Position numbers and translations under genes: made by a program
The notes under the pieces: model-generated
What the model was told of the DNA's origin: nothing
What the model saw: only the letters and a program-made list of their open reading frames with translations
The model's database searches: none
Shown: in pieces, positions 14,088 to 64,000 of the stretch
Layout of the letters: each line of letters begins with the position of its first letter
Numbering within the stretch: position 1 is the stretch's first letter
Sequence record: MW584153.1
Strand: one strand, 5' to 3'
Source: Mycobacterium phage prophi79-1
Length of the DNA: 64,000 nucleotides

Positions 14088-14803
14088 TGAGCGGGTACCA
14101 CGGGATCGGCCCGATTGCGGGCGCCTACCGCGGGAGCGCCCCACTCACAGCCGCGTATCGTGGCTCGGTCAAGGTGTGGTCACGAAACCGCATGTTCGAC
14201 AACTTCTCCGGGCCAAACATCGATCTCAAAGACACCGGCCGATGGGCTGATCTTGGCCCCTCCACGGACTACCGGGCGGCGATAGTCGATGGGGTTATGC
14301 GCCTCGGCATGCCGGATGGCCTCATCGCCACTACCAACCGATTCAGCCGGGCCCGATACACCGTCGCCCAGCACGCGGCCGACGACGGATACATCGAGTG
14401 CCGCGCTGCTACCAAGGGCAACGGATCTCCACCGCTCGGCGGTGCGTCGTATACGACGATCCTCTATCGCCGGGCCAACAACACCGGCGCGACGCAGACG
14501 CATGGGGTCGGAATCGGACTGCGAGAATCGAAGCTGTTCATCGCCCTGCGTGCGTCGAGCATTGACGCCGAAGTGGTGCAGTGCGGCAGCTTCGGTGCGG
14601 GAGATATCTTCCGACTCAAGCAAGTCGGCAATCTGCACAGCATGTATCGCAATGGCCAGTTCGTCGGCGAGTGGAAGGACACCAACAACCTTGCCGCGAT
14701 GGGGCCGGACTATCGCTCGATGACAGTCCGCGTCGATGCTTCCAAGGACATCCTCGGACCGCGCCGATTTTCGCCGGCACTCGATTACGTTGAGTGCAGC
14801 TAG
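14087..14803 (+). CDS. hypothetical or minor tail protein
   Basis: 238 aa, ATGA overlap. Last + strand gene of the tail block. Confidence 0.5.
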   Translation: MSGYHGIGPIAGAYRGSAPLTAAYRGSVKVWSRNRMFDNFSGPNIDLKDTGRWADLGPSTDYRAAIVDGVMRLGMPDGLIATTNRFSRARYTVAQHAADDGYIECRAATKGNGSPPLGGASYTTILYRRANNTGATQTHGVGIGLRESKLFIALRASSIDAEVVQCGSFGAGDIFRLKQVGNLHSMYRNGQFVGEWKDTNNLAAMGPDYRSMTVRVDASKDILGPRRFSPALDYVECS

Positions 14804-15222
14804 GTCCGCGCGCCCCAGTTTCCCGGTCCGCGACGGTGCCGATTCCAGACGTCGATCGTTTCCTCGGACCAGCCGCGGTACTTACCGATCCGGGCATCTT
14901 CTTCCGGAAGTGCGTACTTGGTGAGTGACGACGCGCCCTTGAGGCCGAGAAACTGCGCTACTTCGGAAATGCCCATGTAGTGGACTGGCGTGCGACGGCT
15001 GGTCTTCGTCGGCTGCTTCTTCCAGTTGCCGGGTCCACGGCGGTTGGCGTTCCACGTCGCGATGGACTCTTCCGTCCATCCCCGATAGCTGCCGATGGTG
15101 GCGTCTTCCCGGGGGAGCCTGTATTTGGTCAGCGACGCTGTGTTCTTGAGCCCTAGGTATTGCGCTACGTCGTTAGCGCTTAGGTACTGCACTACCTTCT
15201 TGCGCAGTGCAGTTGCGCTCAC
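14800..15222 (-). CDS. tandem helix-turn-helix (MerR/excisionase-like) DNA-binding protein
   Basis: Two near-identical about 65-aa repeats (VAQYLGLKNTASLTKYRLPREDATIGSYRGWTEESIATWN / VAQFLGLKGASSLTKYALPEEDARIGKYRGWSEETIDVWN). Confidence 0.6.
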   Translation of the reverse strand: MSATALRKKVVQYLSANDVAQYLGLKNTASLTKYRLPREDATIGSYRGWTEESIATWNANRRGPGNWKKQPTKTSRRTPVHYMGISEVAQFLGLKGASSLTKYALPEEDARIGKYRGWSEETIDVWNRHRRGPGNWGART

Positions 15223-15233
15223 CGTGGTCTCCT

Positions 15234-15632
15234 TTAGCTGCGTCGTGGTTGCCGGTCACCTACGAGTATAGGCAGTATCAGCCCGCTGTCGACCGCAGCC
15301 CGGCCAATCACGGCGCGTTGCCAGTCGGCACGAGGATCGTCGCGGACCGGCATTTCGAACGGATTGTCCTCGCTGGCCTGGGAGTCCTTAGCAACATCGA
15401 TGACCTTCTCGACGTCCCGATCGAATTCTTCGATGACGCCCAGAATGCTATCGATGAGGCCCGGGGGGCAGGCGGATCGGCCAATTTCGATGTCGGAGAA
15501 GCTCTTGGGCTTCATGCCGAGTTTAAACGCCATGGAGTGCGAGCTGAGCCCGATGTAGTTGCGATGCGCACGGATCAGCTCACCGAGACCTTCGGTGTAC
15601 TCCGGGGGTCGTTTTTCGGGCACGTCGTCTCC
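15234..15632 (-). CDS. XRE-family HTH DNA-binding protein
   Basis: GTG start with a GAGGAG SD. HTH segment AFKLGMKPKSFSDIEIGRS. The upstream 50 aa of the track ORF is Arg-rich non-coding. Confidence 0.55.
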   Translation of the reverse strand, partial: GDDVPEKRPPEYTEGLGELIRAHRNYIGLSSHSMAFKLGMKPKSFSDIEIGRSACPPGLIDSILGVIEEFDRDVEKVIDVAKDSQASEDNPFEMPVRDDPRADWQRAVIGRAAVDSGLILPILVGDRQPRRS

Positions 15633-15706
15633 TCGTAGACACGACGACCCCGACGTTTGTGGCTGGGGCGGGCCAACAAACATCGGGGTCGGGGGATCGC
15701 ACCAAG

Positions 15707-16279
15707 CTACCACCCGCGTTTGGCCTTGCATATGGGACCGATACCGGCCTCGATGCTCGCCTCGTCGGTTAGTTCCAAGCCACAGCATATGCAGATGCCG
15801 TAGAGCTTCCCCAACTCTGCACAGCGGTCCTGGTCGTCATCGATACGTTTGCCGGTGGCTCGCACCTCACGCAGGATTCCCACCGCAATGTCGAACCTGC
15901 GCGTCTTGGTGTCTAGGACTTTGCCGTACTGACGTCCAGAGCCGTGGACGGCGTGGATAACCTTGACGATCCGGCCGTCGGCCAGCTCGTAGAAGCCGTC
16001 CTCGATCTCAAGGGCATCAGGTCCGCCGACATGCGATCGCACTGCGTTCACCGCGTCCTGGTGAGCATGCAGATACGCCCTGGTCTCTTCGATACGGGCG
16101 CTGGCACCCGACTTGCTCAATCGATCCAATAGGGCGTCGATCTCCTCCGATGCCGCGTCCTCCCGCTTGCCGTTCAGCTGCGCCTTCTGGAGCAGCAGCG
16201 AGCGCAGATAGCTTCGTTGTGAATCAGTGATGGGGTCAACGTCCACGCCTGATGCGGGTGCGGCAAATGGTGATCGCAT
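15707..16279 (-). CDS. hypothetical protein with C-terminal Cys cluster (ICICCG...ICK)
   Basis: 190 aa. Preceded on the minus strand by conserved promoter/leader module 1. Confidence 0.55.
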   Translation of the reverse strand: MRSPFAAPASGVDVDPITDSQRSYLRSLLLQKAQLNGKREDAASEEIDALLDRLSKSGASARIEETRAYLHAHQDAVNAVRSHVGGPDALEIEDGFYELADGRIVKVIHAVHGSGRQYGKVLDTKTRRFDIAVGILREVRATGKRIDDDQDRCAELGKLYGICICCGLELTDEASIEAGIGPICKAKRGW

Positions 16280-32767: not shown

Positions 32768-33057
32768 CGTGCACCGTCCTCAAGCCAGCCGATTACCTGG
32801 TCGGTGACATCGGTCCGCGCGACGACGGTTTGACGGCTCGACCGCAGCTGGCCGTCGCGGATGTGAACCCCGACCTGAGTGGTCACACCGTCGCGGGTGC
32901 GCTCGGCGGTGAAGTACCGCGGGTCCCGCCGGCGCACAGCCCATCCGAAGTCGAGCGCCTGGCGCTCCAAGAACATCGACGTGGTGTAGTCGATCTGCGT
33001 TCCGAGATCGGGCGCTGGGCCCGTCGCACCGGGGAACTGGATCACGATGGCGCTCAT
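32764..33057 (-). CDS. hypothetical protein
   Basis: 97 aa. Confidence 0.5.
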   Translation of the reverse strand: MSAIVIQFPGATGPAPDLGTQIDYTTSMFLERQALDFGWAVRRRDPRYFTAERTRDGVTTQVGVHIRDGQLRSSRQTVVARTDVTDQVIGWLEDGAR

Positions 33058-33434
33058 GCGAACACCCCACGTGGCGTGGTGCTGATGGCGTTCAGTGCGC
33101 GAAGTGCCATGCGGTACTCGAACTTCTGGGCCTGTGTCCAGCTGTAGCCGGGGAATGCGCGTTTGATCGTGGTTCGTCCGCGTCCGATGGTTCGGGCTAC
33201 CTCTCGATAGTTCGCACCGTCTTCGAGCAGTCGAAGTGCCGTTGCGCGTTCCTCTTCGGTCAAGGGCGCGGGGGTGGGAGTGACCGGTAGGCCGGCAGCC
33301 TTGCGGTCACGTAAGACGGTGCGATCGCTGACGCCGAGCTTGACCGCGATCTCTTGGTCGGTGTAGCCCCCACGCGAAAGTGTCGCGACGCGGGCGACTC
33401 GCTCTTGGATGCTGCTGAAATGGGCATGAGACAT
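33054..33434 (-). CDS. helix-turn-helix DNA-binding protein (two sigma-region-4-like HTH); first gene of the leftward early operon
   Basis: Start MSHAHF directly downstream of the full conserved promoter/operator/leader module. HTH segments YTDQEIAVKLGVSDRTV and ANYREVARTIGRGRTTIKRA. Confidence 0.6.
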   Translation of the reverse strand: MSHAHFSSIQERVARVATLSRGGYTDQEIAVKLGVSDRTVLRDRKAAGLPVTPTPAPLTEEERATALRLLEDGANYREVARTIGRGRTTIKRAFPGYSWTQAQKFEYRMALRALNAISTTPRGVFA

Positions 33435-33453
33435 AAGGTTCGTTCCTTCCGTC

Positions 33454-33513
33454 GGTGGGTTTGTTCCCTGCCTGACTGGACTGACATTACCCATTACCAT
33501 GGGTAGAGTCAAC
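33454..33513 (-). promoter_or_regulatory. conserved promoter/operator/leader module (TTGACTC, palindrome TACCCATTACCATGGGTA, AGGCAGGGAACAAACCCACC, GGAAGGAAC SD)
   Basis: Same architecture recurs at about 16.3, 17.0, 25.3, 36.9, 43.4 and 50.8 kb. Confidence 0.6.
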
Positions 33514-33656
33514 AACTCGGGCCGATGGGATATCGGCTGTGAGCTGCAATGATGCTGCGCGAATCTACCCGGGTCTAAAGGTAATTCAGTGGGTGCGGCG
33601 GTGCCGACCCTGACGATGACAATGCCATAGGTTCTCGGTGCTGTCGCGCACCGCGC

Positions 33657-33911
33657 CTATGAGGTCGCGGCGAAACCTACCCGCGCGCCCCGTCGCATGC
33701 GTGATTTGTCGAGCTGGATCGCCAGCATGAGTGCCTCGCGCGGGCCGTCGGCGAGAGCGGATAGAAGGTCCGGCAGCACCCCTCGCGCGTCCAGTTCTTC
33801 GGCGAGTGTGGCTAGTGCTCCGGTCTGCCGTTGTGATGGTGGCATCTGGCTGATCGAGCCGAGCCCGAAGGCGACCACAGCAACGGTCTGATGTTCGAGT
33901 GGACGGGTCAT
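33657..33911 (-). CDS. hypothetical protein
   Basis: 84 aa, GC3 about 65%, ATGA overlap with the AP2 gene. Confidence 0.4.
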   Translation of the reverse strand: MTRPLEHQTVAVVAFGLGSISQMPPSQRQTGALATLAEELDARGVLPDLLSALADGPREALMLAIQLDKSRMRRGARVGFAATS

Positions 33912-34468
33912 TTCTTGCGACCTTTCGCCGCGGTGCGTGCAGTGTCGATCGCGGCCTGGGTGAGGCGGTAGGCCCGTTTGTCGCGATGCGGATCAGTGAA
34001 CGGATCTACCTGCGGCGTCCGCGATTTGGTGGGTTTGGCCTGATCAGAGCGGGGTAGTGGCTTGCGTTCACCGGCGTAGACCTGTCGCGCTACCTCGGCG
34101 GCGACGTTCAGGTTCTCGTGCAGTCCGAAGCTGCAGTAGCGGCCGTCGACCTTGATGCGAACGTGGTACTTGCCCGATTGCTGGTTGAAGCTGACACCGC
34201 GTACTCCGGTGCCGCTGCGCGGTGACGCTGACTCGCTCACCGTGTACGGCTTGCGCGGCCCCGCAGCTGGTCTGCGCTCGCTGCTGTACCGCGCCCTGGT
34301 GTTGGCGCCCGGTGCGAGCTTTCCCGCAGCCGCGAGTGCAGCTGTTTGCTCGGCCTCGCCCTGGTCATCGAAGTAGCCGTAGCTTCCGGCGTGCGGTCCG
34401 CGCCGAAGGTGCACACGCCACCGGCCAGCCGAGGGCGCCCAATACACGCCTGGCACAGTGGATTTCAT
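33908..34468 (-). CDS. AP2-domain (two copies) DNA-binding protein, leaderless; candidate lysogeny regulator
   Basis: GVYWAPSAGRWRVHL and RGVSFNQQSGKYHVRIKVDGRYCSFGLHENLNVAAEVAR are AP2/integrase-type DNA-binding signatures. TATGTT hexamer ends 7 nt before the ATG. Confidence 0.6.
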   Translation of the reverse strand: MKSTVPGVYWAPSAGRWRVHLRRGPHAGSYGYFDDQGEAEQTAALAAAGKLAPGANTRARYSSERRPAAGPRKPYTVSESASPRSGTGVRGVSFNQQSGKYHVRIKVDGRYCSFGLHENLNVAAEVARQVYAGERKPLPRSDQAKPTKSRTPQVDPFTDPHRDKRAYRLTQAAIDTARTAAKGRKK

Positions 34469-34969
34469 GTCCCTAACATATCATGTCAAAAATGACAGTG
34501 CTTGACACCAGGTGTTAGGATCAACGCCGAGGAGCGCGGGAGGCCCCAAGGCCGGGAGCGCGACGAGGCGGACATTAGATGTCTGTTATTCATCATCGTT
34601 ATCACGCGCGCGGACGATTGACACTAGTACATCATGTCAATGTCATTGGACACGAGGGTATTTCATAGCAGCTGACCACCGGACTTGTGCTGGATGCCGG
34701 GGGAGAACGCGCGTCCTCGCTCCGCTTGGGCTGCACTCGTCGCGCACCCTCGCAGGCGATAGCGAAGTCACCGTGGGGTCGCGTGAGATGTCCTTGACCG
34801 GTGAGCTGCGCGTCCCTGTGGTCGTCAGCAGCCGTGCAAGACAGCAGTGATGCCTGTAGGGGACAGGGTGAGCTGGATCGAGTGTCTGCGTGGATCTCAG
34901 GGGCAGGAATACCTGTGTGCGTAGAGCTGTGGGAGCAGCTGTGCTGTCAGTTCAGCCCGTACTCGTACC
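34469..34969. promoter_or_regulatory. divergent switch region with TGTCA/TGACA inverted repeats (CCTAACAtatcaTGTCAaaaaTGACAgtgcttgacaccaggTGTTAGG; TGTCAATGtCATTGGACA)
   Basis: About 500 bp non-coding, relatively AT-rich, between the leftward AP2 gene and the rightward RHH/HTH genes. Confidence 0.55.
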
Positions 34970-35176
34970 GTGCAGGACATGGAGGACTTGCCCACCAAAC
35001 GAACAGTCCGGGCGCGCGAAACTATCTGGAGACGGCTGAAATCGGAGGCGTCACTCGAAGGCCGGACGCTCGACGAGTTCTTCGAGTCGGTGCTCGATGA
35101 CCGGGACCGGCGGCGCGAGAAGGCCAAACGGCTGCAGAAGTCCCCGCTGCACCGGGTGGAGGTTGATGCGCTGTGA
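34970..35176 (+). CDS. ribbon-helix-helix (CopG/Arc-like) protein
   Basis: KRTVRARETIWRRLKSEASLEGRTLDEFFESVL. 68 aa. Start could be the ATG at 34979. Confidence 0.5.
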   Translation: MQDMEDLPTKRTVRARETIWRRLKSEASLEGRTLDEFFESVLDDRDRRREKAKRLQKSPLHRVEVDAL

Positions 35177-35772
35177 GCGGTGATATCGAGGCGTTCGTCA
35201 ACGGCACGTCTCCCGAGGACGAGACGCTGTTCGAGCGCCGGATGCGGGTCGTCATGCTGCGCAACGCGGGCGTGACGTTCACCGACATCGCCCGACAGCT
35301 CAAGATCAGCGCCACGCAGGCGCGCAAGGACCTGTCGGCCGGGCTGCGGGATATCTTGGCCGACACCGCCGAAGACATGATCGCCCGCCAGCGCAGCGTC
35401 ACGCTGGACCTGCAGAAGGCGAACTACAAGAAGATGCTCGAAGGCGACATCGATGCGGGCCGGTTGATCCTGGCGGCGCTCGAACGCGAGGCCAAGCTGT
35501 TCGGGCTGGACGCCCCGACGCGCGTCAACGTCGGTGTTAGCGACATCGAGTTCGCCGAGAAGACGGCGGCGCTGATCGAATCGGTGGGCGGCACACCGCC
35601 GGCCGATCTGCTCAAGGCGATCGGGCACCGCGCCGGTGCGACCAGGGACGGGGGAGACGCGGCCGTCATCGACGCCGAGGTCGTGACCGAGGACCGCGCC
35701 GAGCCGGTCGCCGCCCCGGCGCCGGCACCCGGCTGGCAGCCGGTCGCGGCCGACGAGTGGTCCAATATCTGA
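35173..35772 (+). CDS. helix-turn-helix DNA-binding protein
   Basis: GTGA overlap start. HTH VTFTDIARQLKISATQARKDL. 199 aa. Confidence 0.6.
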   Translation: MSGDIEAFVNGTSPEDETLFERRMRVVMLRNAGVTFTDIARQLKISATQARKDLSAGLRDILADTAEDMIARQRSVTLDLQKANYKKMLEGDIDAGRLILAALEREAKLFGLDAPTRVNVGVSDIEFAEKTAALIESVGGTPPADLLKAIGHRAGATRDGGDAAVIDAEVVTEDRAEPVAAPAPAPGWQPVAADEWSNI

Positions 35773-35783
35773 CACACGAGAAA

Positions 35784-35812
35784 GCCCCCGCCACGTGGGG
35801 CATGGCGGGGGC
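35784..35812 (-). terminator. hairpin terminator (GCCCCCGCCA...TGGCGGGGGC) followed by a T-tract on the minus strand
   Basis: Perfect 10-bp stem between convergent genes. Confidence 0.55.
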
Positions 35813-36328: not shown

Positions 36329-36820
36329 CTACTTGGCAGCGGCCTTGTCGACCTTGGGCTCGTCCATCACCTTGATCAGCGCCAGGCCCTTGCCGGACTC
36401 GTACTCGGCGACCTGCGCAGCCGGAACCTTCAGGAAGTCGGTGGCCTTGTCCTTGGGGGCTAGCCAGTTGTGCACGCGCTCCACCTTCAGCTTCGAGCCG
36501 GGGATGATCTGGTCGATGGGCTTGGTGCCCTCCAGCTTCTCGGCCCTGGTCACCAGGTCGCTAGCACCGTGGTGGACGTGCACCACGGTGTCGCCCTTGG
36601 TGTACTGGTCAACGTTGGTGCTGATTTGCTCGAACGCCCAGCCATTGGCCTGAGCTGCGTAGCGCACAGCCACCCGGAACTTGGTCGCGCTGGTGACCTT
36701 CTTGCTCAGCACCACGGGGGCGGGCTCGGGCTTGGGGGCAGCGGCCTTAGCCGGTGCAGGTGTGGTCGCAGCCTTGGCAGCACGGGTGGCAGGCTTGCGG
36801 GCAGGGGCAGTAACAGACAT
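36329..36820 (-). CDS. protein with N-terminal Ala/Lys/Pro-rich histone-H1/HupB-tail-like region
   Basis: AAKAATTPAPAKAAAPKPEPAP tail. ATG abuts the GAAGGGATTGAACCC leader. Confidence 0.6.
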   Translation of the reverse strand: MSVTAPARKPATRAAKAATTPAPAKAAAPKPEPAPVVLSKKVTSATKFRVAVRYAAQANGWAFEQISTNVDQYTKGDTVVHVHHGASDLVTRAEKLEGTKPIDQIIPGSKLKVERVHNWLAPKDKATDFLKVPAAQVAEYESGKGLALIKVMDEPKVDKAAAK

Positions 36821-36962
36821 GGGTTCAATCCCTTCATCGGTGTGCTCACCTCTTGGTGAACTACCTATAACCTACAGTGCTATCCGTCCTCTCGCAAGGT
36901 TTGCCCGACCGAGCCCATAGGACCGAATATGAGCGCGAAAATTTTGACGAACCTCGGAAAAC

Positions 36963-36988
36963 ACACTACCTATTGTTATAGGTAGTGT
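36963..36988 (-). promoter_or_regulatory. operator palindrome ACACTACCTATTGTTATAGGTAGTGT
   Basis: 12-bp perfect arms. Same half-site as the other modules. Confidence 0.55.
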
Positions 36989-37007
36989 CATTTGCGGTGC
37001 CCATGGG

Positions 37008-37303
37008 CTACGGCGTCAGGTGATCCTGCGGAGCCCATGGGTAAGGGTCCTGGCCGGCGCCGGGTACGTCATAGCAGTTGCCGCCACTGATGTATCCGCC
37101 GCCACCGCCCCACGTCGGGGTGTTGTAGAAGCACCGTCGCCACGAACCGTCGGCGCGCACCGGGCCATCGCAGTACGACACCATCGCGCGCGGCTCGCAG
37201 TACTGATCCGCCTTGGCCGGCGCCGCGAATCCAACTGCTGCCACCCCTGACGCTGCCAGCATCGACACGACGAAACCCGCCCTGGCCTTCATGTATTTGT
37301 CTC
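37008..37303 (-). CDS. small secreted Cys-containing Gly-rich protein
   Basis: Signal peptide ...AAPAKA, then CEPRAMVSYCDG...GGGGGYISGGNCYD. The Arg-rich upstream part of the track ORF was rejected. Confidence 0.45.
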
Positions 37304-43996: not shown

Positions 43997-44752
43997 CTAC
44001 GCCTTGCTGCCCTCGGGCCAGCCTGGGTCCGGCGGCAAGGTTGGCGGTGGCTCCGACACTTTCTTGGGGTTGGGCAGATTCGTTGGCGTTCCCGGCGCAA
44101 ATTTGACGCACTGTGGCAAGGTCGTCGCGATCTGTGGGTCGTAGTCGAAGAGCACCCATGTGCCGAACACGTTGTCCCTGGGCCGTTTGGCTGGGCCTTT
44201 TTGGTGGGCAGGTGGCGCGTGCTGCTGGTCGGCTGAGAGTTTCGGGTCGGGGCCGAAGCTGATCCACTCGCCGCCATTCGTCGGTTTCGGCCCTGGGCCT
44301 GAGTATTGACCGTCTTCGAGCTGTCCTGCCGACTGTGAGGTGTAGGCGCAGACCCCGGCCTTGTATCGGTCGCCGTCACGGCTAAGCGCGACGATTTCGT
44401 AGTAGACCGTACCGACCAAGGGGCGCTCGTATCGGACGGTGCCGCCGACCTCCTCCGGCTTCCATGGGGTGTTTGGGGCGTTGAAGGCGTGGTCAAAGCC
44501 GGGGTATCCACCGGCCCTGATCGCATCTAAGCCATATCCCTGCCCCGCTTGGGCTGCCCGCCAGGATTCCATCGTGGCGCGGATAAAGGTGCCTTCGGGG
44601 GACATGAGGTCTGCGGCGGGGTTGGGTATCCATCGAGCGGTGGTGTGGTCGTTGGAATCCCACGGCGCAGGGGCTTTAGGGCTGTCATGGGTGCACGACA
44701 CCAGCAGGAGGGCAGCGGCGGCGAGCGCTACATGAGTGGAGCGCGGTGTCAC
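43997..44752 (-). CDS. lipoprotein (candidate immunity protein)
   Basis: Lipobox LLLVSC. Stop overlaps the toxin gene (ATGA-type). Confidence 0.6.
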   Translation of the reverse strand: MTPRSTHVALAAAALLLVSCTHDSPKAPAPWDSNDHTTARWIPNPAADLMSPEGTFIRATMESWRAAQAGQGYGLDAIRAGGYPGFDHAFNAPNTPWKPEEVGGTVRYERPLVGTVYYEIVALSRDGDRYKAGVCAYTSQSAGQLEDGQYSGPGPKPTNGGEWISFGPDPKLSADQQHAPPAHQKGPAKRPRDNVFGTWVLFDYDPQIATTLPQCVKFAPGTPTNLPNPKKVSEPPPTLPPDPGWPEGSKA

Positions 44753-46971
44753 TTACTGGGCTCCGGTCCCCAGCCGCGGTATCGGCGTCCCATGTCCTGC
44801 TGGTCGTTCCAGTGCTCCATGTTGAAGTTGTAATCCCGTGGGGCGGTGTGCTGTAACCACCTCGACAGATCCGACTGCGCCTGGCCCCTGCCCTGGGAAT
44901 CCAGGTTCGATATGTCGAAGTGTCCGTTGTGAATGTATTGACCGATGTCGGGATCGTTGGCGATGCCTGGGTGGGCTTGCAGGAGGGCATCGAGGACGCT
45001 GGTTTGGTACGCCTGTATGTTGCCGAAACTGCCTGATTGAGCGAGGTTTTGGGCGAAGCCCTCGGGTAGTTTCGACGCATCGTCGATGTGTTTTTGTGCG
45101 GTGTCAAGGACTTCGATGGCATCGCCCACGTGGGGCAGCTTGCCCAGTAGCTTCTTGGCAGCTTCCATGCCTTCGTCGGCGGGTTTGTCAGCGACCGAGT
45201 CCAGTGCCCCATCGGCCAGGCCCTGAGAGAGTCGCCCGGCGGCGTTGAGATCTAGGTCCGAGCCGGTGCGGGCGGCGTCGTTGAGGAGCTGCTGGTGCTG
45301 TTGATGTCCGGCTTCGTTGATGATGTCGCCGGAGTATTGGCCCTTGTCGAAGGTGGAGATCATGTCCCGCATCTCGTCGGCCTTGGTGAACGGCTTGATG
45401 CCGGGGTCTTGCCGATGGGTGGGGTCCGAATCGGCGAACTGGCTCAGGTACTCACCCTCGACTTTGGCTGTGGTTCCGGCCATTTCGGGGTTGTTCTGGG
45501 CGAAGTTGCCGCCCCCGGCCATGTGCTGCAATTCGTCTTTGTGCTCGGCTATGTAGTGACCCACCTGGTTGGCGACCTCGGCCCCCTTCTGGGAGTGATC
45601 GCCAGCCCAGGCCAGGGTGTCATCGACCTTGCCGGACTGATCCCCGTAGTTCTCACCCAGCACACCGCGGAGGAACTTCTCGCCCTCGGTGGGCTCAGCG
45701 GTGACGATCTCGTGGACCCCCACCTGATCTTGCGCACCGCTCTTATAGATGTCGGCTAGGGCGTTGGTCAGCGGGCCATGGGCATCGGAGGTCAGGTGTG
45801 CAGGTTTTTCGGCCGAGTGGCTGTCGATGTCAGCGTTGGAGTACTGGCTGGCCGCATCCAGCATCGCCTTTCCGGCTTCGGAGCCGTTGAGGTAGGGGCC
45901 AGCGCCGTCGAAGATCTTGGCCATCGCTTGCATGTCGTCAACGCCGCGCAGTTCAATGTTCGGCAACCCGGCCTTGTCGGCGGCGGGGCCAACACCGAGC
46001 GGGCCACTAGCGACCCGATCACCACGGGTCATCTCGGCGACCATGCCATCGGACAAGTTGGCCAGTGATCCGGCGCCGGGGATGAAGTTCTTCTTGGTGG
46101 CCTCGGTGACACCGCTGGTGTTCTCCACACCGGAGCGGACCTGGTCGTTGGCGACTATCGCGAGGGCGCGGGTCATGGCATCGCGTTGCGCGGGCGGTAA
46201 CCCAGCCTTGATGGCGGCGATCTGGTCAGGTGTCTTGCCGTCGAAGGAGTGCGCGAACTGGTACAGGTACTGCATCCGGTTCGACCCAATGTCGATCTTC
46301 TTGCCAGTTGCGAGGTCTTGGAGCTGCTGAGCATCCAGCGTGGACGCGGCCTGCACACGGCCCAACACGTCGGTGTCCCATTGGGTGCCGCCTTGCAAGT
46401 AGGCGCCATCGAGGTGTCCGGCGTTGGCCGTCAGACCGCCGATGGGGTTGTAGGAAGTGTTCAGCTCGCCGATGATCGCCCGGATTTCGCCTTGGGCCTC
46501 CTCCTCGGCAGCCCACCAGGTGTCGTAGGCGGCGCGGATCTCGCGGGTGACGCGTTCGGCGACTTTCTTGCCCTGTGCGATGAGTTCGGGGGTGGCGCGT
46601 GGCGGCACGATCCAGTCCACTTTGAGGTCTTCGGAGACGGTGTAGCCGTGGCTGGTCATATCGTTGTAGATCTGAACTGGCTTGCTGTGGCTCTCTTTGA
46701 CCTTGAACGCCAACGTGTTCAATGCATCGTTGCCTTCATCGCGGACACGCTCGGTGGCTCCGTAGACCACCTTCTCGTCGGCGGCTGCGGTGTCCTGGGC
46801 GGCGGTGGCGGCCTTGCCCTGCCATTCCTGGCCGCCTGGTCTCTCGATGGCGTGTTTGTAGGACTTGGCCTCACCCTGCAATTCAGTGGCCGCCAGGATC
46901 GCCTGGCGCATGCCCTCGATGGCATTCTCCGGCTTGGTGGACAACAGCATCCGCAACGAATACCCGGCCAT
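44749..46971 (-). CDS. WXG100-type (type VII secretion-like) polymorphic toxin candidate
   Basis: N-terminal about 100 aa with a helical hairpin and W-x-G (QEWQGKAATAAQ). Long Ala/Gly/Asp-rich central region. Distinct C-terminal domain. 740 aa. Confidence 0.65.
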   Translation of the reverse strand: MAGYSLRMLLSTKPENAIEGMRQAILAATELQGEAKSYKHAIERPGGQEWQGKAATAAQDTAAADEKVVYGATERVRDEGNDALNTLAFKVKESHSKPVQIYNDMTSHGYTVSEDLKVDWIVPPRATPELIAQGKKVAERVTREIRAAYDTWWAAEEEAQGEIRAIIGELNTSYNPIGGLTANAGHLDGAYLQGGTQWDTDVLGRVQAASTLDAQQLQDLATGKKIDIGSNRMQYLYQFAHSFDGKTPDQIAAIKAGLPPAQRDAMTRALAIVANDQVRSGVENTSGVTEATKKNFIPGAGSLANLSDGMVAEMTRGDRVASGPLGVGPAADKAGLPNIELRGVDDMQAMAKIFDGAGPYLNGSEAGKAMLDAASQYSNADIDSHSAEKPAHLTSDAHGPLTNALADIYKSGAQDQVGVHEIVTAEPTEGEKFLRGVLGENYGDQSGKVDDTLAWAGDHSQKGAEVANQVGHYIAEHKDELQHMAGGGNFAQNNPEMAGTTAKVEGEYLSQFADSDPTHRQDPGIKPFTKADEMRDMISTFDKGQYSGDIINEAGHQQHQQLLNDAARTGSDLDLNAAGRLSQGLADGALDSVADKPADEGMEAAKKLLGKLPHVGDAIEVLDTAQKHIDDASKLPEGFAQNLAQSGSFGNIQAYQTSVLDALLQAHPGIANDPDIGQYIHNGHFDISNLDSQGRGQAQSDLSRWLQHTAPRDYNFNMEHWNDQQDMGRRYRGWGPEPSK

Positions 46972-57881: not shown

Positions 57882-58376
57882 TCATGCCCCGATCGCCTTC
57901 GGCTCGTAGTCGGGGAGAAGCGCCGGCATCCGATTCGTCTCATATGCCTCCGCGACCCATGGCACTATCTCGGCACCGACGGTCTGGCCGTTAGGCAGGA
58001 CCAACTGCGCAAGGAACTCGGAGTCGAACGTCGAGATACCTGACTCCACTGCCTCCAACTTGGCCTTGATCACGAGATTCAGTGCGCGCCAGCGCTGCCG
58101 GACAGCCTGCTCGTACGCCTCTTCTCGTTGCGCAGGAGTGCGTGGGCGAGGTGGTTTGTGGGCGCTCATCGTGAACTCGGGGCTGTTCCTATCGGGCATG
58201 GTGAGCATGAACCGGATCTGACGGTCTCGGACCACGAATCCGACGATGGCCGAGGCCGGGTCGCCCGAGTCCCATCCGTACATGAACTGAGAGGCACCCC
58301 AGCGCGTCAAGGTGCGCTCGATTTCGGCACGAGATTTCTCGGAGCTGACGCTTGTGTTTTCGGCGTAGGTGCCCAT
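57882..58376 (-). CDS. hypothetical protein
   Basis: Start MGTYAEN, TGATG-type overlap with the RuvC stop. Confidence 0.5.
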   Translation of the reverse strand: MGTYAENTSVSSEKSRAEIERTLTRWGASQFMYGWDSGDPASAIVGFVVRDRQIRFMLTMPDRNSPEFTMSAHKPPRPRTPAQREEAYEQAVRQRWRALNLVIKAKLEAVESGISTFDSEFLAQLVLPNGQTVGAEIVPWVAEAYETNRMPALLPDYEPKAIGA

Positions 58377-58936
58377 CAGGCGGCCATCCTCTCGATCCAA
58401 TTGCCCTTGCTCTTACCCGATTTCGAGATGTAGTGATCCGATGTCACTGAGTCGATCGGATGTCCAAGCACGCGGCATCCGATGGCGGCCAGCACCATGG
58501 CGTCGGCAATGTTGTTGTCGACGATGTCCACCTGCGGCCAGCGCCGGATCGACGCGGCGAGCACGACGTCCTTACCGGCATTCCCCGCCCCGGTCGCGTA
58601 CTGCGCGCGTTGGTTGGGCGTCGGGGTGATTATCGGTATGCGGCGGTCCATGCACGCGTCGAAGATCTTGCCCCACAGCCAGCTTCGGTCGTGGTTGTGT
58701 CCGCCGACCTTGGCAAGGGCCGGGGCCTCCAGAACGATCAGCGAAGGCAGCATCTCGAGCTCGGCCACGATCGGAGCCATGATGGTCTTGATTCTGTAGC
58801 TCGTATAGGCGTGGCTGCCGTCTTTTGGCTTAGTCGTCGTCAGATGGGTTTTCGCAGTCCAGCCGGTGTCTTTCCAGTCGACCCGGACGAGTCCAGTTCC
58901 AGTGAGGGAGCTATCGATTCCAATGACTCTGACCAT
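58376..58936 (-). CDS. RuvC-like Holliday junction resolvase
   Basis: MVRVIGIDSSLTGTGL...LIVLEAP RuvC-fold acidic residues. 186 aa. Confidence 0.7.
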   Translation of the reverse strand: MVRVIGIDSSLTGTGLVRVDWKDTGWTAKTHLTTTKPKDGSHAYTSYRIKTIMAPIVAELEMLPSLIVLEAPALAKVGGHNHDRSWLWGKIFDACMDRRIPIITPTPNQRAQYATGAGNAGKDVVLAASIRRWPQVDIVDNNIADAMVLAAIGCRVLGHPIDSVTSDHYISKSGKSKGNWIERMAA

Positions 58937-61276: not shown

Positions 61277-62755
61277 GTGAAGATCAAGCCCAGCGATCTG
61301 GCGAACAAGGCCGGGACAATCATCCACGCCGAGGATCTGTCCGATGGCTTGAACATCCAGCCCGACGAGTCGCTGACAGCCGGAACGCCGATCGCGACGG
61401 TGGCCAGCACCGATGAGCCCGAGATGTTCCGGACATTCACCGATCAGGCGCTCGCTCCCATCGGGGAGAACACCGATGACCGTCGCCGGTTCGCTAAGGA
61501 CATCGAGATGTCGTTCCGGTCGTTCCCTCAGCCGCTCATGTGGTGCCGACAGTCCAAGGGCGGTCACGACGACTCCTTCACGGTAGGCGTCATCGAAAGT
61601 GCCCGGGTGGAGGGTGACAAGCTGCTGGCTAGTGGGTACCTGTTGAACACTCCCGAGGCCGACGAGATGGCGATGCAGAACGCGCACGGCGTGTCGAATC
61701 CTTCTGTCGATCTCGGTGCGGCCGACTACACCTTCACCGACGCCGATGGTAACGAGCTCGATGATGACGCCATTTTCGATGCTCTGTTCTTCGGCGAGGG
61801 CGAGCTGTATTACAACTTCACGAAGGCCAAGCTGCTGGGAGCGACGATGGTCTCCACGCCCGCATTCGATACTCGCGTGCGTCTCGATGCCGAGCGCAGC
61901 CCAAGGGAGGTGGCGCTTGTGGCTAGCGCTCAGCAGGCATTTGCGCCAAAGGTATACGCCCGCAAGATGTTCGAAGACCCCAAGCTCTCGGGTCTGACAT
62001 TGCCGACCATCGACGATAACGGCCGAATCTACGGGCACCTCGCAGCCTTCGGCACTTGCCATCGCAGTATCCAGGACTCGTGCACACTGGTGCCCAAGTC
62101 AAATTCCGGGTACCGCGAGTTCCACACCAGCCCGGCAGTCCGTCTGGACGACGGCACCCGGCTGCCCGTGGGGCGCCTCACGGTGGGATGCGGTCATGCG
62201 GATACCCGGCTTCCGGCCATCCCCGCGGCGGCGCACTACGACAACGCCGGATCCGCATTCGCCCTTGTGCGCGTCGGCGAGGACAAGCACGGGATCTGGT
62301 TCTCTGGTGTCGCTGCGCCCTGGGCCACTCCCGAGCAGATCGAGATGGGCCTGTCCGCGCCGTTGTCCGGCGACTGGCGTAACTTCGGCCAGGGGCTTGA
62401 ACTGGTCGCCGCGCTGGCGGTTAATACGCCGGGGTTCAATGTCCGTGCCGGCGGAACGACCGACGATGAAGGATTGCCGTTCGCGATGGTGGCTTCCGGG
62501 CGGCTCTCCAGCAAGATCGGCACCACCAGGGGAGCAGCGCTACGAGCGGACCAGATCCAGGACGCGGTGGCTGCGGGAGTTGTGAAGGGAATGGAACGGC
62601 TTTCTGCGGCCAATCAGGCGGCTGAGGAAGCCGCGGCGCGTGCGGCACACATCATGGAAGTGAACAAGGCGATGTCGCGTGTGCGCGAGGTGGTTCCGCC
62701 TCCGAAGTCGGTGCGGGATCAGATCGGCGAGAAGCTGGCGGCGAGGGCGCTCTAG
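61277..62755 (+). CDS. capsid maturation protease (possibly fused with a scaffold-like C-terminal helix)
   Basis: 492 aa directly after the portal. Ala-rich coiled-coil C-terminus. Confidence 0.5.
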   Translation: MKIKPSDLANKAGTIIHAEDLSDGLNIQPDESLTAGTPIATVASTDEPEMFRTFTDQALAPIGENTDDRRRFAKDIEMSFRSFPQPLMWCRQSKGGHDDSFTVGVIESARVEGDKLLASGYLLNTPEADEMAMQNAHGVSNPSVDLGAADYTFTDADGNELDDDAIFDALFFGEGELYYNFTKAKLLGATMVSTPAFDTRVRLDAERSPREVALVASAQQAFAPKVYARKMFEDPKLSGLTLPTIDDNGRIYGHLAAFGTCHRSIQDSCTLVPKSNSGYREFHTSPAVRLDDGTRLPVGRLTVGCGHADTRLPAIPAAAHYDNAGSAFALVRVGEDKHGIWFSGVAAPWATPEQIEMGLSAPLSGDWRNFGQGLELVAALAVNTPGFNVRAGGTTDDEGLPFAMVASGRLSSKIGTTRGAALRADQIQDAVAAGVVKGMERLSAANQAAEEAAARAAHIMEVNKAMSRVREVVPPPKSVRDQIGEKLAARAL

Positions 62756-62955
62756 TGGGTTGCGGGTGCGGTAGCAGTCGCTCGCGCGCAGCTGGCGGCG
62801 AAGAGATTTTGGGCTACCGGGTGATCCGACCGGACGGCACTCTCGTGCCGCCGGAGACTCAGTCCCCGTTTCTATCGGCGCCCGAGGCCCGCGCAGAAGT
62901 ACGGGCCTCGGGCGGAGGGACAGTTCGAACAGTTACACGCGCTGGTACGTCTTGA
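62755..62955 (+). CDS. small hypothetical protein
   Basis: GTG start overlapping the protease stop. 66 aa. Confidence 0.35.
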   Translation: MGCGCGSSRSRAAGGEEILGYRVIRPDGTLVPPETQSPFLSAPEARAEVRASGGGTVRTVTRAGTS

Positions 62956-63961
62956 CAGACGTCAGGCGCGGAGGCAGGGGAGCCGCCACCGCCTCGACGA
63001 CATCGCGGACTTTTCCGGGATACGACGCGGTGTACAGCTGCGTCGTGGCGACGCTCGCGTGTCCGAGGGCATCACGCATCGCCAGCAGGTCACCGGTAGC
63101 CGCCAATCCCAAGGTCGCAAAGCGGTGGCGTAGCTTGTGCATTGACCACCCCTGCGGCATCCGATTGCCGATCAGCTTGCCGACGTAGTGCGCTGACAGA
63201 TGCCCGTTCTCCTGACCGGGGAACAGGTATCCGCCAGGACAGAACGCGATGATCGCATGAGCAAGACTGTCGGTGATCGGCAGTAGCCGTTGACGACCTC
63301 CCTTGCCGTGAACCAGCAGGGCGAAGCCCGTGGAGTCGCGGAGCAGGTCGTCCCGATGGCACACTGCGACCTCGGCCCGGCGCATTCCGAGCTCGCCGGC
63401 CAAACGCACCATCATTTTCTCTCGCGGTGGAGCGGTTCTAACGAGCTCGGACCACAAGTGTTCTGGGCACGGACGCGGATTCGGCGTACCGCCAGGAACC
63501 TTGGGCAGTCCAACGGCCGGATTCTCGTCTACCCGCCCCTCGCTGATCGCCCACTCGAAGAACATGATGAGTGAGCGTCGAACGCCTCGTCGGTGCTCGT
63601 TTGACCATTGGTGTTCGCTGCACACTCGCACCAAGACGCCGAGGTCGACGTGTGCCGGTCCTTTGGTCTGACTAGTACGCGCCACCATGCGAATATGGCC
63701 GCGCCGCAAGCGGATTGTGGTTGATGGTATGCCTGCGATGCGAAGCCACGTAATCCATGCCCCGATCGCACTCTCCCAGTCTTCGGAGAGAGCGTATGGA
63801 TGATTAAACACAGGGTGAACATTTACTATCGGTACGACCGTACCGCTATCACTCTTTCGTTTAGTTACCGAACTGTTAGTTACTCCAGGGGATCTCTTGT
63901 AGTCACGCATGTTTAACACCTTTTGGTCGGGCTTCCCGCTGGTAGCGGCTGTCATGCCCAA
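62933..63961 (-). CDS. int: tyrosine integrase
   Basis: C-terminal catalytic motifs HKLRHRFAT...LGHASVATTQLYT (R...HxxR...Y). 342 aa. Start may be the internal ATG at 63910. Confidence 0.85.
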   Translation of the reverse strand: MGMTAATSGKPDQKVLNMRDYKRSPGVTNSSVTKRKSDSGTVVPIVNVHPVFNHPYALSEDWESAIGAWITWLRIAGIPSTTIRLRRGHIRMVARTSQTKGPAHVDLGVLVRVCSEHQWSNEHRRGVRRSLIMFFEWAISEGRVDENPAVGLPKVPGGTPNPRPCPEHLWSELVRTAPPREKMMVRLAGELGMRRAEVAVCHRDDLLRDSTGFALLVHGKGGRQRLLPITDSLAHAIIAFCPGGYLFPGQENGHLSAHYVGKLIGNRMPQGWSMHKLRHRFATLGLAATGDLLAMRDALGHASVATTQLYTASYPGKVRDVVEAVAAPLPPRLTSVKTYQRV

Positions 63962-64000
63962 CCACCGGACGGTTCTTGGTTCGAGTCCAAGCGGGGGAGC
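63940..64000 (+). other. attP-like core: 3' part of a tRNA gene (T-arm CTTGG-TTCGAGT-CCAAG plus acceptor 3' strand), truncated by the window edge
   Basis: T-loop/acceptor-like sequence immediately beyond the integrase start. No complementary 5' acceptor strand upstream. Confidence 0.45.

Follow-up and report, generated by a model that had tools for sequence, protein, structure and literature searches.

A probable divergent early-control region of Mycobacterium phage prophiGD79-1 and its candidacy as the place of the lysogeny decision

Background

The Mycobacterium abscessus prophage prophiGD79-1 is 76,148 bp long, is the sole member of cluster MabQ, and is inserted at attB-4, at the 3' end of a tRNA-Asn gene (PMC8092301). 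A 64,000-nt stretch of this element (sequence record MW584153.1; the window in what follows) contains, around 34.5 kb, a junction at which a gene for a protein with AP2 domains is transcribed leftward, and genes for a ribbon-helix-helix (RHH) protein and a helix-turn-helix (HTH) protein are transcribed rightward. An original prediction, made from the DNA letters, had interpreted this junction as the lysis/lysogeny switch of the phage, with the choice of immunity repressor left among several DNA-binding proteins. The present study describes the anatomy of the junction, its protein families, and its conservation among related phages, and weighs the functions that have been or could be assigned to it. 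On balance, we favour reading the interval as the divergent early-control region of prophiGD79-1 and as the leading candidate place for its lysogeny decision, with the RHH and HTH genes in the position of the repressor.

Results

Anatomy of the divergent junction

The genes and regulatory features of the junction, in window coordinates, are the following.

33657-33911, minus strand: DUF7423 protein of 84 amino acids (PF24198, 3.7e-6), overlapping the end of the AP2 gene
33908-34468, minus strand: tandem AP2-domain DNA-binding protein of 186 amino acids, recognised with AlphaFold and Foldseek, its Pfam score lying below the cutoff
34475-34483, minus strand: extended -10 box TGaTATGTT of a leftward promoter, P_L, read from the sequence, with its predicted start site at the A of the ATG at 34468
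34484-34507, unstranded: operator-like inverted repeat TGTCAA-N12-TTGACA, lying between both -10 boxes and containing TGTCA-N4-TGACA
34513-34521, plus strand: extended -10 box TGtTAGGAT of a rightward promoter, P_R, from a promoter scan, with a -35-like ATGACA at 34492-34497 and a predicted start at about 34528
34618-34652, unstranded: second site cluster, TTGACA-N11-TGTCAA-TGTCAT-tGGACA, located some 90-125 nt within the leader of P_R
34925-34971, plus strand: RHH-proximal elements, namely AGCTGTG at 34925 and 34937 (12 bp apart) and TACCGT at 34966-34971, 7 nt before the ATG at 34979
34970-35176, plus strand: RHH protein of the RHH_10 family (QSM01849; PF23807, 43.2 bits against a cutoff of 27)
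35173-35772, plus strand: HTH protein of 199 amino acids (QSM01850; phrog_645, 8.9e-51), of a family historically named 'RNase E' in Cluster B phages
35784-35812, unstranded: GC-rich hairpin with a 12-bp stem, from a terminator scan and the sequence, between convergent units

The spacer between the AP2 and RHH genes measures 501 bp, and every coordinate and sequence that the original prediction gave was reproduced from the DNA, including CCTAACAtatcaTGTCAaaaaTGACAgtgcttgacaccaggTGTTAGG at 34472-34519 and a second near-palindrome (TTGACA-N11-TGTCAA-TGTCAT) at 34618-34646. The predicted promoters P_L and P_R stand back to back, with 35 bp separating their -10 boxes. At P_L, 6 nt separate the box TGaTATGTT from the ATG, such that a start site 7 nt past the -10 box would coincide with the A of the start codon. 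Mycobacterial leaderless transcripts are recognised by a TANNNT that ends 6-7 nt before an ATG or GTG and by the lack of a Shine-Dalgarno sequence, and the AP2 gene has this configuration, its 5' end being a predicted one; the leaderless mRNA proposed earlier for this gene therefore has its signature in the DNA (TANNNT, 6 nt, ATG), and the TANNNT is kept in relatives. P_R comprises ATGACA, an 18-nt spacer, and the extended -10 box (34492-34521, plus strand). The outer arms of the repeats double as promoter parts, the right arm TGTTAGG forming the extended -10 of P_R and the left arm CCTAACA overlapping the -10 of P_L. In silico, the junction thus has the makeup of divergent promoters with overlapping operator repeats.

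The repeat motifs are concentrated here beyond chance. Six TGTCA/TGACA pentamers fall within 190 bp (34469-34660), the maximum over all 190-bp segments of the 64 kb, where 0.24 would be expected (Poisson P ~2e-7, ~8e-5 after correction). The spacer also holds 4 of the window's 19 TTGACA/TGTCAA hexamers and both of its TTGACATG 8-mers. Nearer the RHH gene, the TACCGT region is possibly a second, leaderless promoter for that gene. Positions 34571-34670, at 43% G+C, are among the lowest of the window. The P_R leader does not fold better than shuffled sequence (z-score +0.59) and no Rfam match was found in the spacer at E<=1, and a riboswitch or small-RNA reading of the spacer was dropped on these two results. 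An open reading frame of 112 amino acids within the spacer was rejected as a gene, since the alignment with close relatives is broken at this place by 1-nt indels.

The RHH/HTH unit is short, opposed to the direction of the neighbouring genes, and closed by a strong hairpin. This hairpin had been described as a perfect terminator of the RHH and HTH genes. The hairpin itself is real, but its T-run lies on the minus-strand side, so that the convergent leftward unit ends in a canonical terminator and the RHH/HTH unit in a hairpin that lacks a tail. At 36329-36991, the minus strand encodes a 163-aa protein that matches no family and whose N-terminus, rich in Ala, Lys, and Pro, resembles a histone tail; another minus-strand gene, at ~37008-37300, specifies a small secreted protein.

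Proteins encoded at the junction

The AP2 assignment rests on the predicted fold. The Pfam score of 25.6 bits falls short of the gathering score of 33.3, PF00847 is precomputed for the representatives of the protein's clusters, and the PHROG matches cover the AP2 part of HNH endonucleases. An AlphaFold model made with seven homologs contains a beta-beta-beta-alpha unit twice (residues ~5-47 and ~89-131), joined by a disordered linker of ~40 residues and followed by a C-terminal helix, with no nuclease domain. The best Foldseek matches of this model were 7wq5 (WRINKLED1 on DNA, probability 0.99), 7et4 (TEM1 AP2, root-mean-square deviation 2.2 A), and Plasmodium AP2 domains. The protein thus belongs by fold with the AP2/ERF domains, as had been proposed, though its profile score is sub-threshold. 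As modelled, it resembles the plant tandem-AP2 factors WRINKLED1 and ANT in its two beta-beta-beta-alpha domains and linker; it differs from them and from the phage HNH-AP2 endonucleases in its disordered linker, its extra C-terminal helix, and its lack of a nuclease domain, the similarity being confined to the AP2 domain. The family has very few members, nearly all of them in MabQ-type prophages, and a scan of the genome collection with the protein gave no match.

The RHH protein has 68 amino acids counted from a GTG and 65 from the ATG at 34979, the PGAP start. Its RHH_10 profile score exceeds the gathering threshold, in agreement with the earlier assignment, and it also has a weak match to the MatP RHH domain. 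A tblastn search against phages returned no match, and the homolog search returned four near-identical clusters only. The start of the following open reading frame overlaps the RHH stop codon, and the HTH gene is apparently translationally coupled to the RHH gene. The model of its 199-aa product has an N-terminal HTH followed by a helical hairpin, and generic HTH folds were its only matches; no terminase, toxin, or repressor match was obtained in the fold and sequence searches. A C-terminal W-S-N-I is conserved.

Conservation of the junction among relatives

Among six MabQ-type relatives, the best-conserved stretch is the spacer, at 94-98% identity, compared with 87-93% for the AP2 coding sequence and 82-91% for the HTH coding sequence. 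Because the spacer is more conserved than the genes that flank it, it appears to be constrained as DNA, and does not display the diversification typical of heteroimmune immunity regions. A search for an immunity hotspot by divergence profiling was abandoned, as it returned general mosaicism and a conserved spacer.

The junction can also be followed into a more distant relative, L097, whose AP2 homolog is 46% identical and in which the order HTH, RHH_10, a 445-bp spacer, AP2, and DUF7423 is preserved. The L097 spacer has mostly diverged, with TGTCAA-N12-TTGACA retained; this element has the same spacing in L097 and in all MabQ-type relatives. The inner TGACA is replaced by TGCCG in L097. The nested TGTCA/TGACA repeats to which the original prediction drew attention are accordingly present and non-random, but the unit conserved over distance is TGTCAA-N12-TTGACA and not TGTCA-N4-TGACA. 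In L097, TTGACA is also followed, after 8 nt, by a P_R box (TGtTAGAGT), with a GC-rich hairpin directly after it; ATGTCAA occurs a second time, and the likely start codons of both genes are preceded by leaderless-type boxes (TATGGT, 6 nt, GTG for AP2; TAAGCT, 7 nt, ATG for RHH). The TANNNT of P_L persists as TAAGTT in L006 and L008 despite substitutions, and the P_R motif recurs in L097, L100, and L103 as TGtTAGAGT, TGaTAGGCT, and TGtTAGGCT, respectively, 7-8 nt downstream of TTGACA. In the second cluster, L006 has kept the half-sites with the intervening nucleotides changed. The distance from one ATGTCAA site to the other is 151 bp in the window and in L097 and 145-152 bp among close relatives; judged from these alignments, the second site is kept in place and is not rigidly phased. 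A scan of the viral collection for CTACCTAT-N4-ATAGGTAG was set aside, having yielded mostly chance single matches. In L002 (IMGVR_UViG_2802429148_000001), a run of ~32 G lies opposite window position 34857 in an otherwise 98%-identical relative, and could be an artefact of assembly or else a homopolymer of hypervariable length.

The RHH-proximal half of the spacer has its own repeats. Across five related spacers, no 6-mer is more enriched than GCTGTG (10 copies, with 0.86 expected), which lies in this half, where iteron-like direct repeats also occur in L100 (5517-5560, 3.5 x 14 bp) and L102 (1-60, ~3 x 20 bp).

An RHH_10 gene directly precedes the HTH gene in four mutually independent distant relatives (L097, L100, L102, and L103), and in distant uncultured relatives, whose HTH protein is 51-60% identical, the overlapping RHH_10 and HTH genes form a two-gene rightward unit that is preceded, where visible (L100 and L103), by a spacer of 404-692 bp. 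On this gene order, RHH_10 followed by HTH is an ancestral overlapping pair. A total of 496 phage records contain homologs of the HTH protein, nearly all from mycobacteriophages of Cluster B; this cluster is missing from a published list of temperate clusters (PMC9262239).

A divergent junction was present in all three sequenced relatives that were examined (Stinger, Pipefish, and Evaa). Cluster B3 phage Pipefish has an AP2 gene (gp67, 39% identical) followed by a DUF7423 gene (gp66, 3.8e-26), the same succession as in L097, and the rightward operon of the Gordonia phage Evaa includes an RHH_10 gene (gp60, 8.9e-20); none of the 85 features annotated in Evaa is an integrase or a repressor. The AP2 gene is the part that the junction can best do without: L100, Evaa, and Stinger lack it and have the remainder. 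In L100, DUF7423 is the first leftward gene. The operator layout of the window was not found in the Evaa, Stinger, or Pipefish junctions.

The element and its integrase

Seven window proteins match proteins of prophiGD79-1 and of M. abscessus chromosomal contigs exactly, and the published att core was found at 63967-63999, which identifies the window as the right-hand part of the prophage, up to attR. The integrase is placed as follows.

62933-63955, minus strand: tyrosine integrase, within the window

The integrated state, the integrase, the att sites, and the exact prophage protein matches together mark the element as temperate. The original prediction had supposed the integrase to lie beyond the window and had allowed that immunity might map beside it. 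The integrase is in fact inside, and immunity at that place is unlikely, int and attP standing alone between two head genes. The integrase and attR (61277-64000 region) are isolated, with the gene for a 492-aa head protein on one side and that for the major capsid protein on the other; the latter opens the GenBank record as gene 1 (PROPHIGD79-1_1, labelled 'hypothetical protein'); the attL-to-capsid interval of that record has no annotated gene, and no repressor linked to int/attP was found, head genes flanking int on both sides. With no repressor beside the integrase, immunity must be encoded among the regulators of the right arm.

In gene content, the element is a circularly permuted Cluster-B-like phage, with the tape measure and tail genes at 1-15 kb, then the lysin, and an extended block of leftward replication genes for helicase, primase/polymerase, and DNA polymerase I. 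The DNA polymerase I shares no more than 58% identity with those of JAMaL, Nigel, Cooper, and Pipefish. Genes for ParB-like proteins, a PAPS-reductase-like protein, a methyltransferase, the terminase, and the portal are also present. The region had no nucleotide match by megablast in a phage collection without the source record itself. In Evaa, the portal, protease, and capsid genes are contiguous except for one small hypothetical gene and include no integrase, so that the int/attP cassette looks inserted into a Cluster-B-type backbone. From this gene order, prophiGD79-1 appears to be a Cluster-B-like phage turned temperate by gaining an int/attP cassette within its head-gene operon. Two further observations were made in the window: between the terminase and portal genes stand an open reading frame for an Rpf/transglycosylase-like protein (57384-57818, plus strand) and one for a RuvC-like resolvase (58376-58936, minus strand), and positions 43997-47282 correspond to a previously published EspA-like TPR polymorphic-toxin cassette.

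A promoter-embedded palindrome and a second regulator locus

Two features to the left of the AP2 operon and one in the tail-lysis region bear on the choice of regulator.

33054-33434, minus strand: two-HTH DNA-binding protein (QSM01846; HTH_23 at 1.7e-13 in two matched stretches, phrog_664 at 7.5e-32)
33482-33512, minus strand: promoter plus palindrome module, with TTGACT, a 17-nt spacer, and TAATGT, and with TACCCAT-N4-ATGGGTA inside the spacer and -10 box (repeat family D1)
15234-15788, minus strand: Xre-type HTH protein, from a Pfam scan

The full conserved module that had been noted upstream of the two-HTH gene is real, and that gene is the first after the module, heading the replication gene block. 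The two-HTH protein has homologs among early-region DNA-binding proteins of Cluster F/J and Gordonia phages. The module belongs to a family of at least nine sites, all of them intergenic (16332, 17005, 25311, 33488, 36967, 43477, 50788, 55694, and 58947), with the minus-strand consensus TTGACn-CTACCyAT-N4-ATrGGTAGTAT and thus a 20-bp palindrome, CTACCyAT-N4-ATrGGTAG. TACC-N10-GGTA occurs at 10 exact sites in the window and, with one mismatch allowed, at 26 against 8.6 expected. The most symmetric module (36961-36991) drives the gene of the 163-aa protein mentioned above, which shares the 35784-35812 terminator with the RHH/HTH unit. P_L and P_R are without this palindrome. A comparable module, TTGACA..TACCG-N4-CGGTATTCT, precedes at least four leftward genes in Evaa (gp54, gp72, gp73, and gp77; L044 positions 4336, 10858, 11742, and 13464).

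The Xre-type gene is part of a leftward three-gene island (14800-16279, minus strand) between the tail and lysis genes, which also encodes a DUF6011/DUF3072 protein and a 140-aa protein in which an Evaa gp38-like HTH is internally duplicated. The island proteins are homologs of Evaa gp38-40, at 44-48% identity. In a Pfam scan of 20 further small open reading frames, the Xre-type HTH was the sole DNA-binding domain found.

Discussion

The divergent early-control anatomy described above is probably functional. From sequence features, P_L would be a SigA-type promoter that fires leftward from the A of the AP2 start codon to give a leaderless AP2-DUF7423 mRNA upstream of the replication genes, and P_R would be a SigA-type promoter that fires rightward through a leader of ~440 nt into the overlapping RHH_10 and HTH genes, for which a second, proximal promoter may yield a leaderless RHH mRNA. 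Since TGTCAA-N12-TTGACA extends over the -35 and spacer of P_R and adjoins the -10 of P_L, a single bound complex should close both promoters, and the second ATGTCAA-containing site, ~150 bp off, could cooperate with the first. The RHH_10 protein, perhaps together with the HTH protein, would be the likeliest binder of the repeats and its own regulator, and AP2 and DUF7423 would form the opposing early arm. As the parts are inherited from relatives regarded as lytic, the primary task of the region would be early-gene control.

Whether lysogeny of prophiGD79-1 is also decided here is a separate claim, which we advance tentatively and with somewhat more doubt than conviction. The junction is the most elaborate regulatory site among the right-arm regulators, and it has divergent promoter and operator anatomy in a temperate phage, so that this much of the lysis/lysogeny switch of the original prediction stands; the module is not specific to lysogeny, its parts recurring in relatives annotated as lytic. 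If the decision is taken here, AP2 would by position occupy the Cro-like place and the RHH/HTH pair that of the repressor.

Several observations weigh against this reading and deserve to be set out together. Pipefish has AP2 and DUF7423, Evaa has RHH_10, and about 500 phages, most of them of Cluster B, have the HTH protein; the module is accordingly no hallmark of lysogeny, and it may serve the lytic cycle alone. Unlike classic heteroimmune immunity regions, the spacer is conserved and forms no divergence hotspot. TGTCAA-N12-TTGACA was not found at the same spacing in L100 or L103, and an initial impression of rigid phasing between the two sites, at exactly 151 bp, was withdrawn when the control returned the 145-152 bp range. 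The leader of P_R, for all its length, has no role in the model, and the two-HTH protein at the head of the replication block belongs, by homology, with the usual early genes of Cluster F/J and Gordonia phages. The authors who described the prophage assigned it to immunity group Imm-30 without naming a gene, and counted the RHH/199-aa pair among prophage toxin-antitoxin systems (PMC8092301).

The most serious competitor, though in our estimation rather unlikely, holds that the 34.5-kb region does nothing more than time lytic early genes, and that immunity is exerted by another regulator, the Xre-type HTH protein or a protein with no recognisable motif, acting on the 20-bp palindrome. A palindrome that overlaps the -10 box and spacer of at least nine intergenic promoters has the layout expected for global silencing, Xre-type HTH proteins are the class most used by actinophage repressors, and a leftward island among rightward late genes is where the Xre gene lies; every part of the 34.5-kb region occurs in lytic relatives, and its lack of divergence is as this alternative would have it. 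But the Xre island is equally ancestral, given its Evaa homologs, and lytic Evaa carries analogous promoter palindromes, such that neither palindrome nor Xre gene is specific to lysogeny; the Xre gene itself sits downstream of one palindrome promoter (16332), and the 20 further reading frames contain no other recognisable DNA-binding protein. The version put forward in the original prediction, a dedicated switch with the leaderless tandem-AP2 protein as immunity repressor, we regard as improbable, and AP2 is the least likely of the candidates named there. Its conserved leaderless signature, its near-confinement to MabQ-type prophages, and a promoter free of the genome-wide palindrome would suit a repressor, but the gene heads an operon directed toward the replication genes, which is the position of Cro, with a weak hairpin alone before the next promoter; it is found with DUF7423 in a Cluster B3 phage and is missing from L100, Evaa, and Stinger, and phage AP2 domains are typically parts of homing endonucleases, as the PHROG matches reflect.

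The published reading of the RHH and 199-aa genes as a type II toxin-antitoxin (defence) pair is very unlikely. They do form a small overlapping two-gene unit transcribed against the early genes, RHH proteins are common as antitoxins, and GenBank names the RHH protein 'toxin' and the 199-aa protein 'antitoxin'. Yet Pfam, NCBIfam, and PADLOC place neither protein in a toxin, toxin-antitoxin, or defence family; the 199-aa product is of the HTH type and recurs at the same position in ~500 mostly lytic phages, with a model that matches HTH folds and no toxin-like fold; and the pair is vertically conserved and syntenic in the lineage, in place of the sporadic distribution of toxin-antitoxin systems. 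The GenBank names of QSM01849 and QSM01850 appear unsupported by these sequence and model comparisons. That much of the long spacer is instead a cis-acting replication origin or packaging site, an idea compatible with the promoters, is likewise improbable. Non-coding spacers of 290-692 bp are kept at the junction across the group, beside replication genes, and the low G+C stretch, the tandem repeats of L100 and L102, the enrichment of GCTGTG, and the conservation of the spacer beyond that of the flanking genes would all agree with such a function; no initiator-type gene is adjacent, the window's own spacer has few repeats, GC skew gives no signal at the spacer, and the best-conserved spacer elements are promoter-like.

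The favoured reading, an early-control region with RHH/HTH in the repressor position, can be compared with several known systems. The immI region of phage P22 encodes the small RHH regulators Arc and Mnt, has the close divergent promoters Pant and Pmnt sharing an operator, and is separate from the integrase. The present junction likewise combines a small RHH regulator with closely spaced divergent promoters around a shared operator, at a node apart from the integrase; it has no sequence relation to immI, its RHH gene is coupled to a 199-aa HTH gene, it has an opposing tandem-AP2 arm and the long P_R leader, and its binding is predicted. In the cI/Cro system of phage lambda, the back-to-back promoters PRM and PR enclose operators, and the PRM transcript is leaderless. 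The back-to-back promoters around operators, the short insulated unit facing the replication operon, and the leaderless transcript are shared features, whereas RHH, AP2, and unclassified HTH proteins take the place of the cI and Cro folds, the junction is not linked to int and occurs in lytic relatives, and bistability is not implied. The immunity systems of mycobacteriophages (the stoperators of L5 and Cluster A, and BPs) belong to the same host group and share leaderless regulator genes; in contrast to the asymmetric L5 stoperators of 13-14 bp, the promoter-embedded sites of this prophage are symmetric 20-bp palindromes, and homologs of the L5 and BPs repressors were not encountered. Immunity of prophiGD79-1 is not integration-dependent, unlike that of BPs (Table S2, PMC8092301). 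A further likeness is to the right-arm junctions of Cluster B and related phages (Stinger gp60|gp61-72, Pipefish gp68|gp69-76, and Gordonia phage Evaa gp58|gp59-70), which share the position downstream of DNA polymerase I, the same 199-aa HTH protein in the rightward operon, and long spacers with TTGAC-containing inverted repeats. Compared with these, the rightward operon of the prophage is reduced to two genes and its host element is an integrated prophage, and the TGTCAA-N12-TTGACA plus TGtTAGGAT layout is specific to the sub-lineage that bears RHH_10.

A bolder extension, which we consider unlikely and offer as a conjecture, is that a phage from the Cluster B lineage, considered strictly lytic, became temperate solely through int/attP capture between its capsid protease and capsid genes, reusing an ancestral early shut-off circuit in which RHH_10 and HTH, expressed from their own palindrome-free promoters, would silence P_L and the palindrome promoters (at least nine), with AP2 and DUF7423 in a Cro-like or anti-repressor role.

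Conclusions

Prophages of M. abscessus are mined for therapy, and therapeutic phages need removal of the repressor to become obligately lytic. prophiGD79-1 has no repressor beside its integrase, and the search for its immunity determinant is now narrowed to a few regulators, two of which bear database names, 'toxin' and 'antitoxin', that the analysis suggests are wrong. A tandem-AP2 protein acting as a regulator in a bacterial virus would be an unusual use of this domain. If the proposed reading is true, the early-control circuit of a lytic lineage, doubling as an immunity system after the gain of an integrase, would constitute a simple route between lytic and temperate life.

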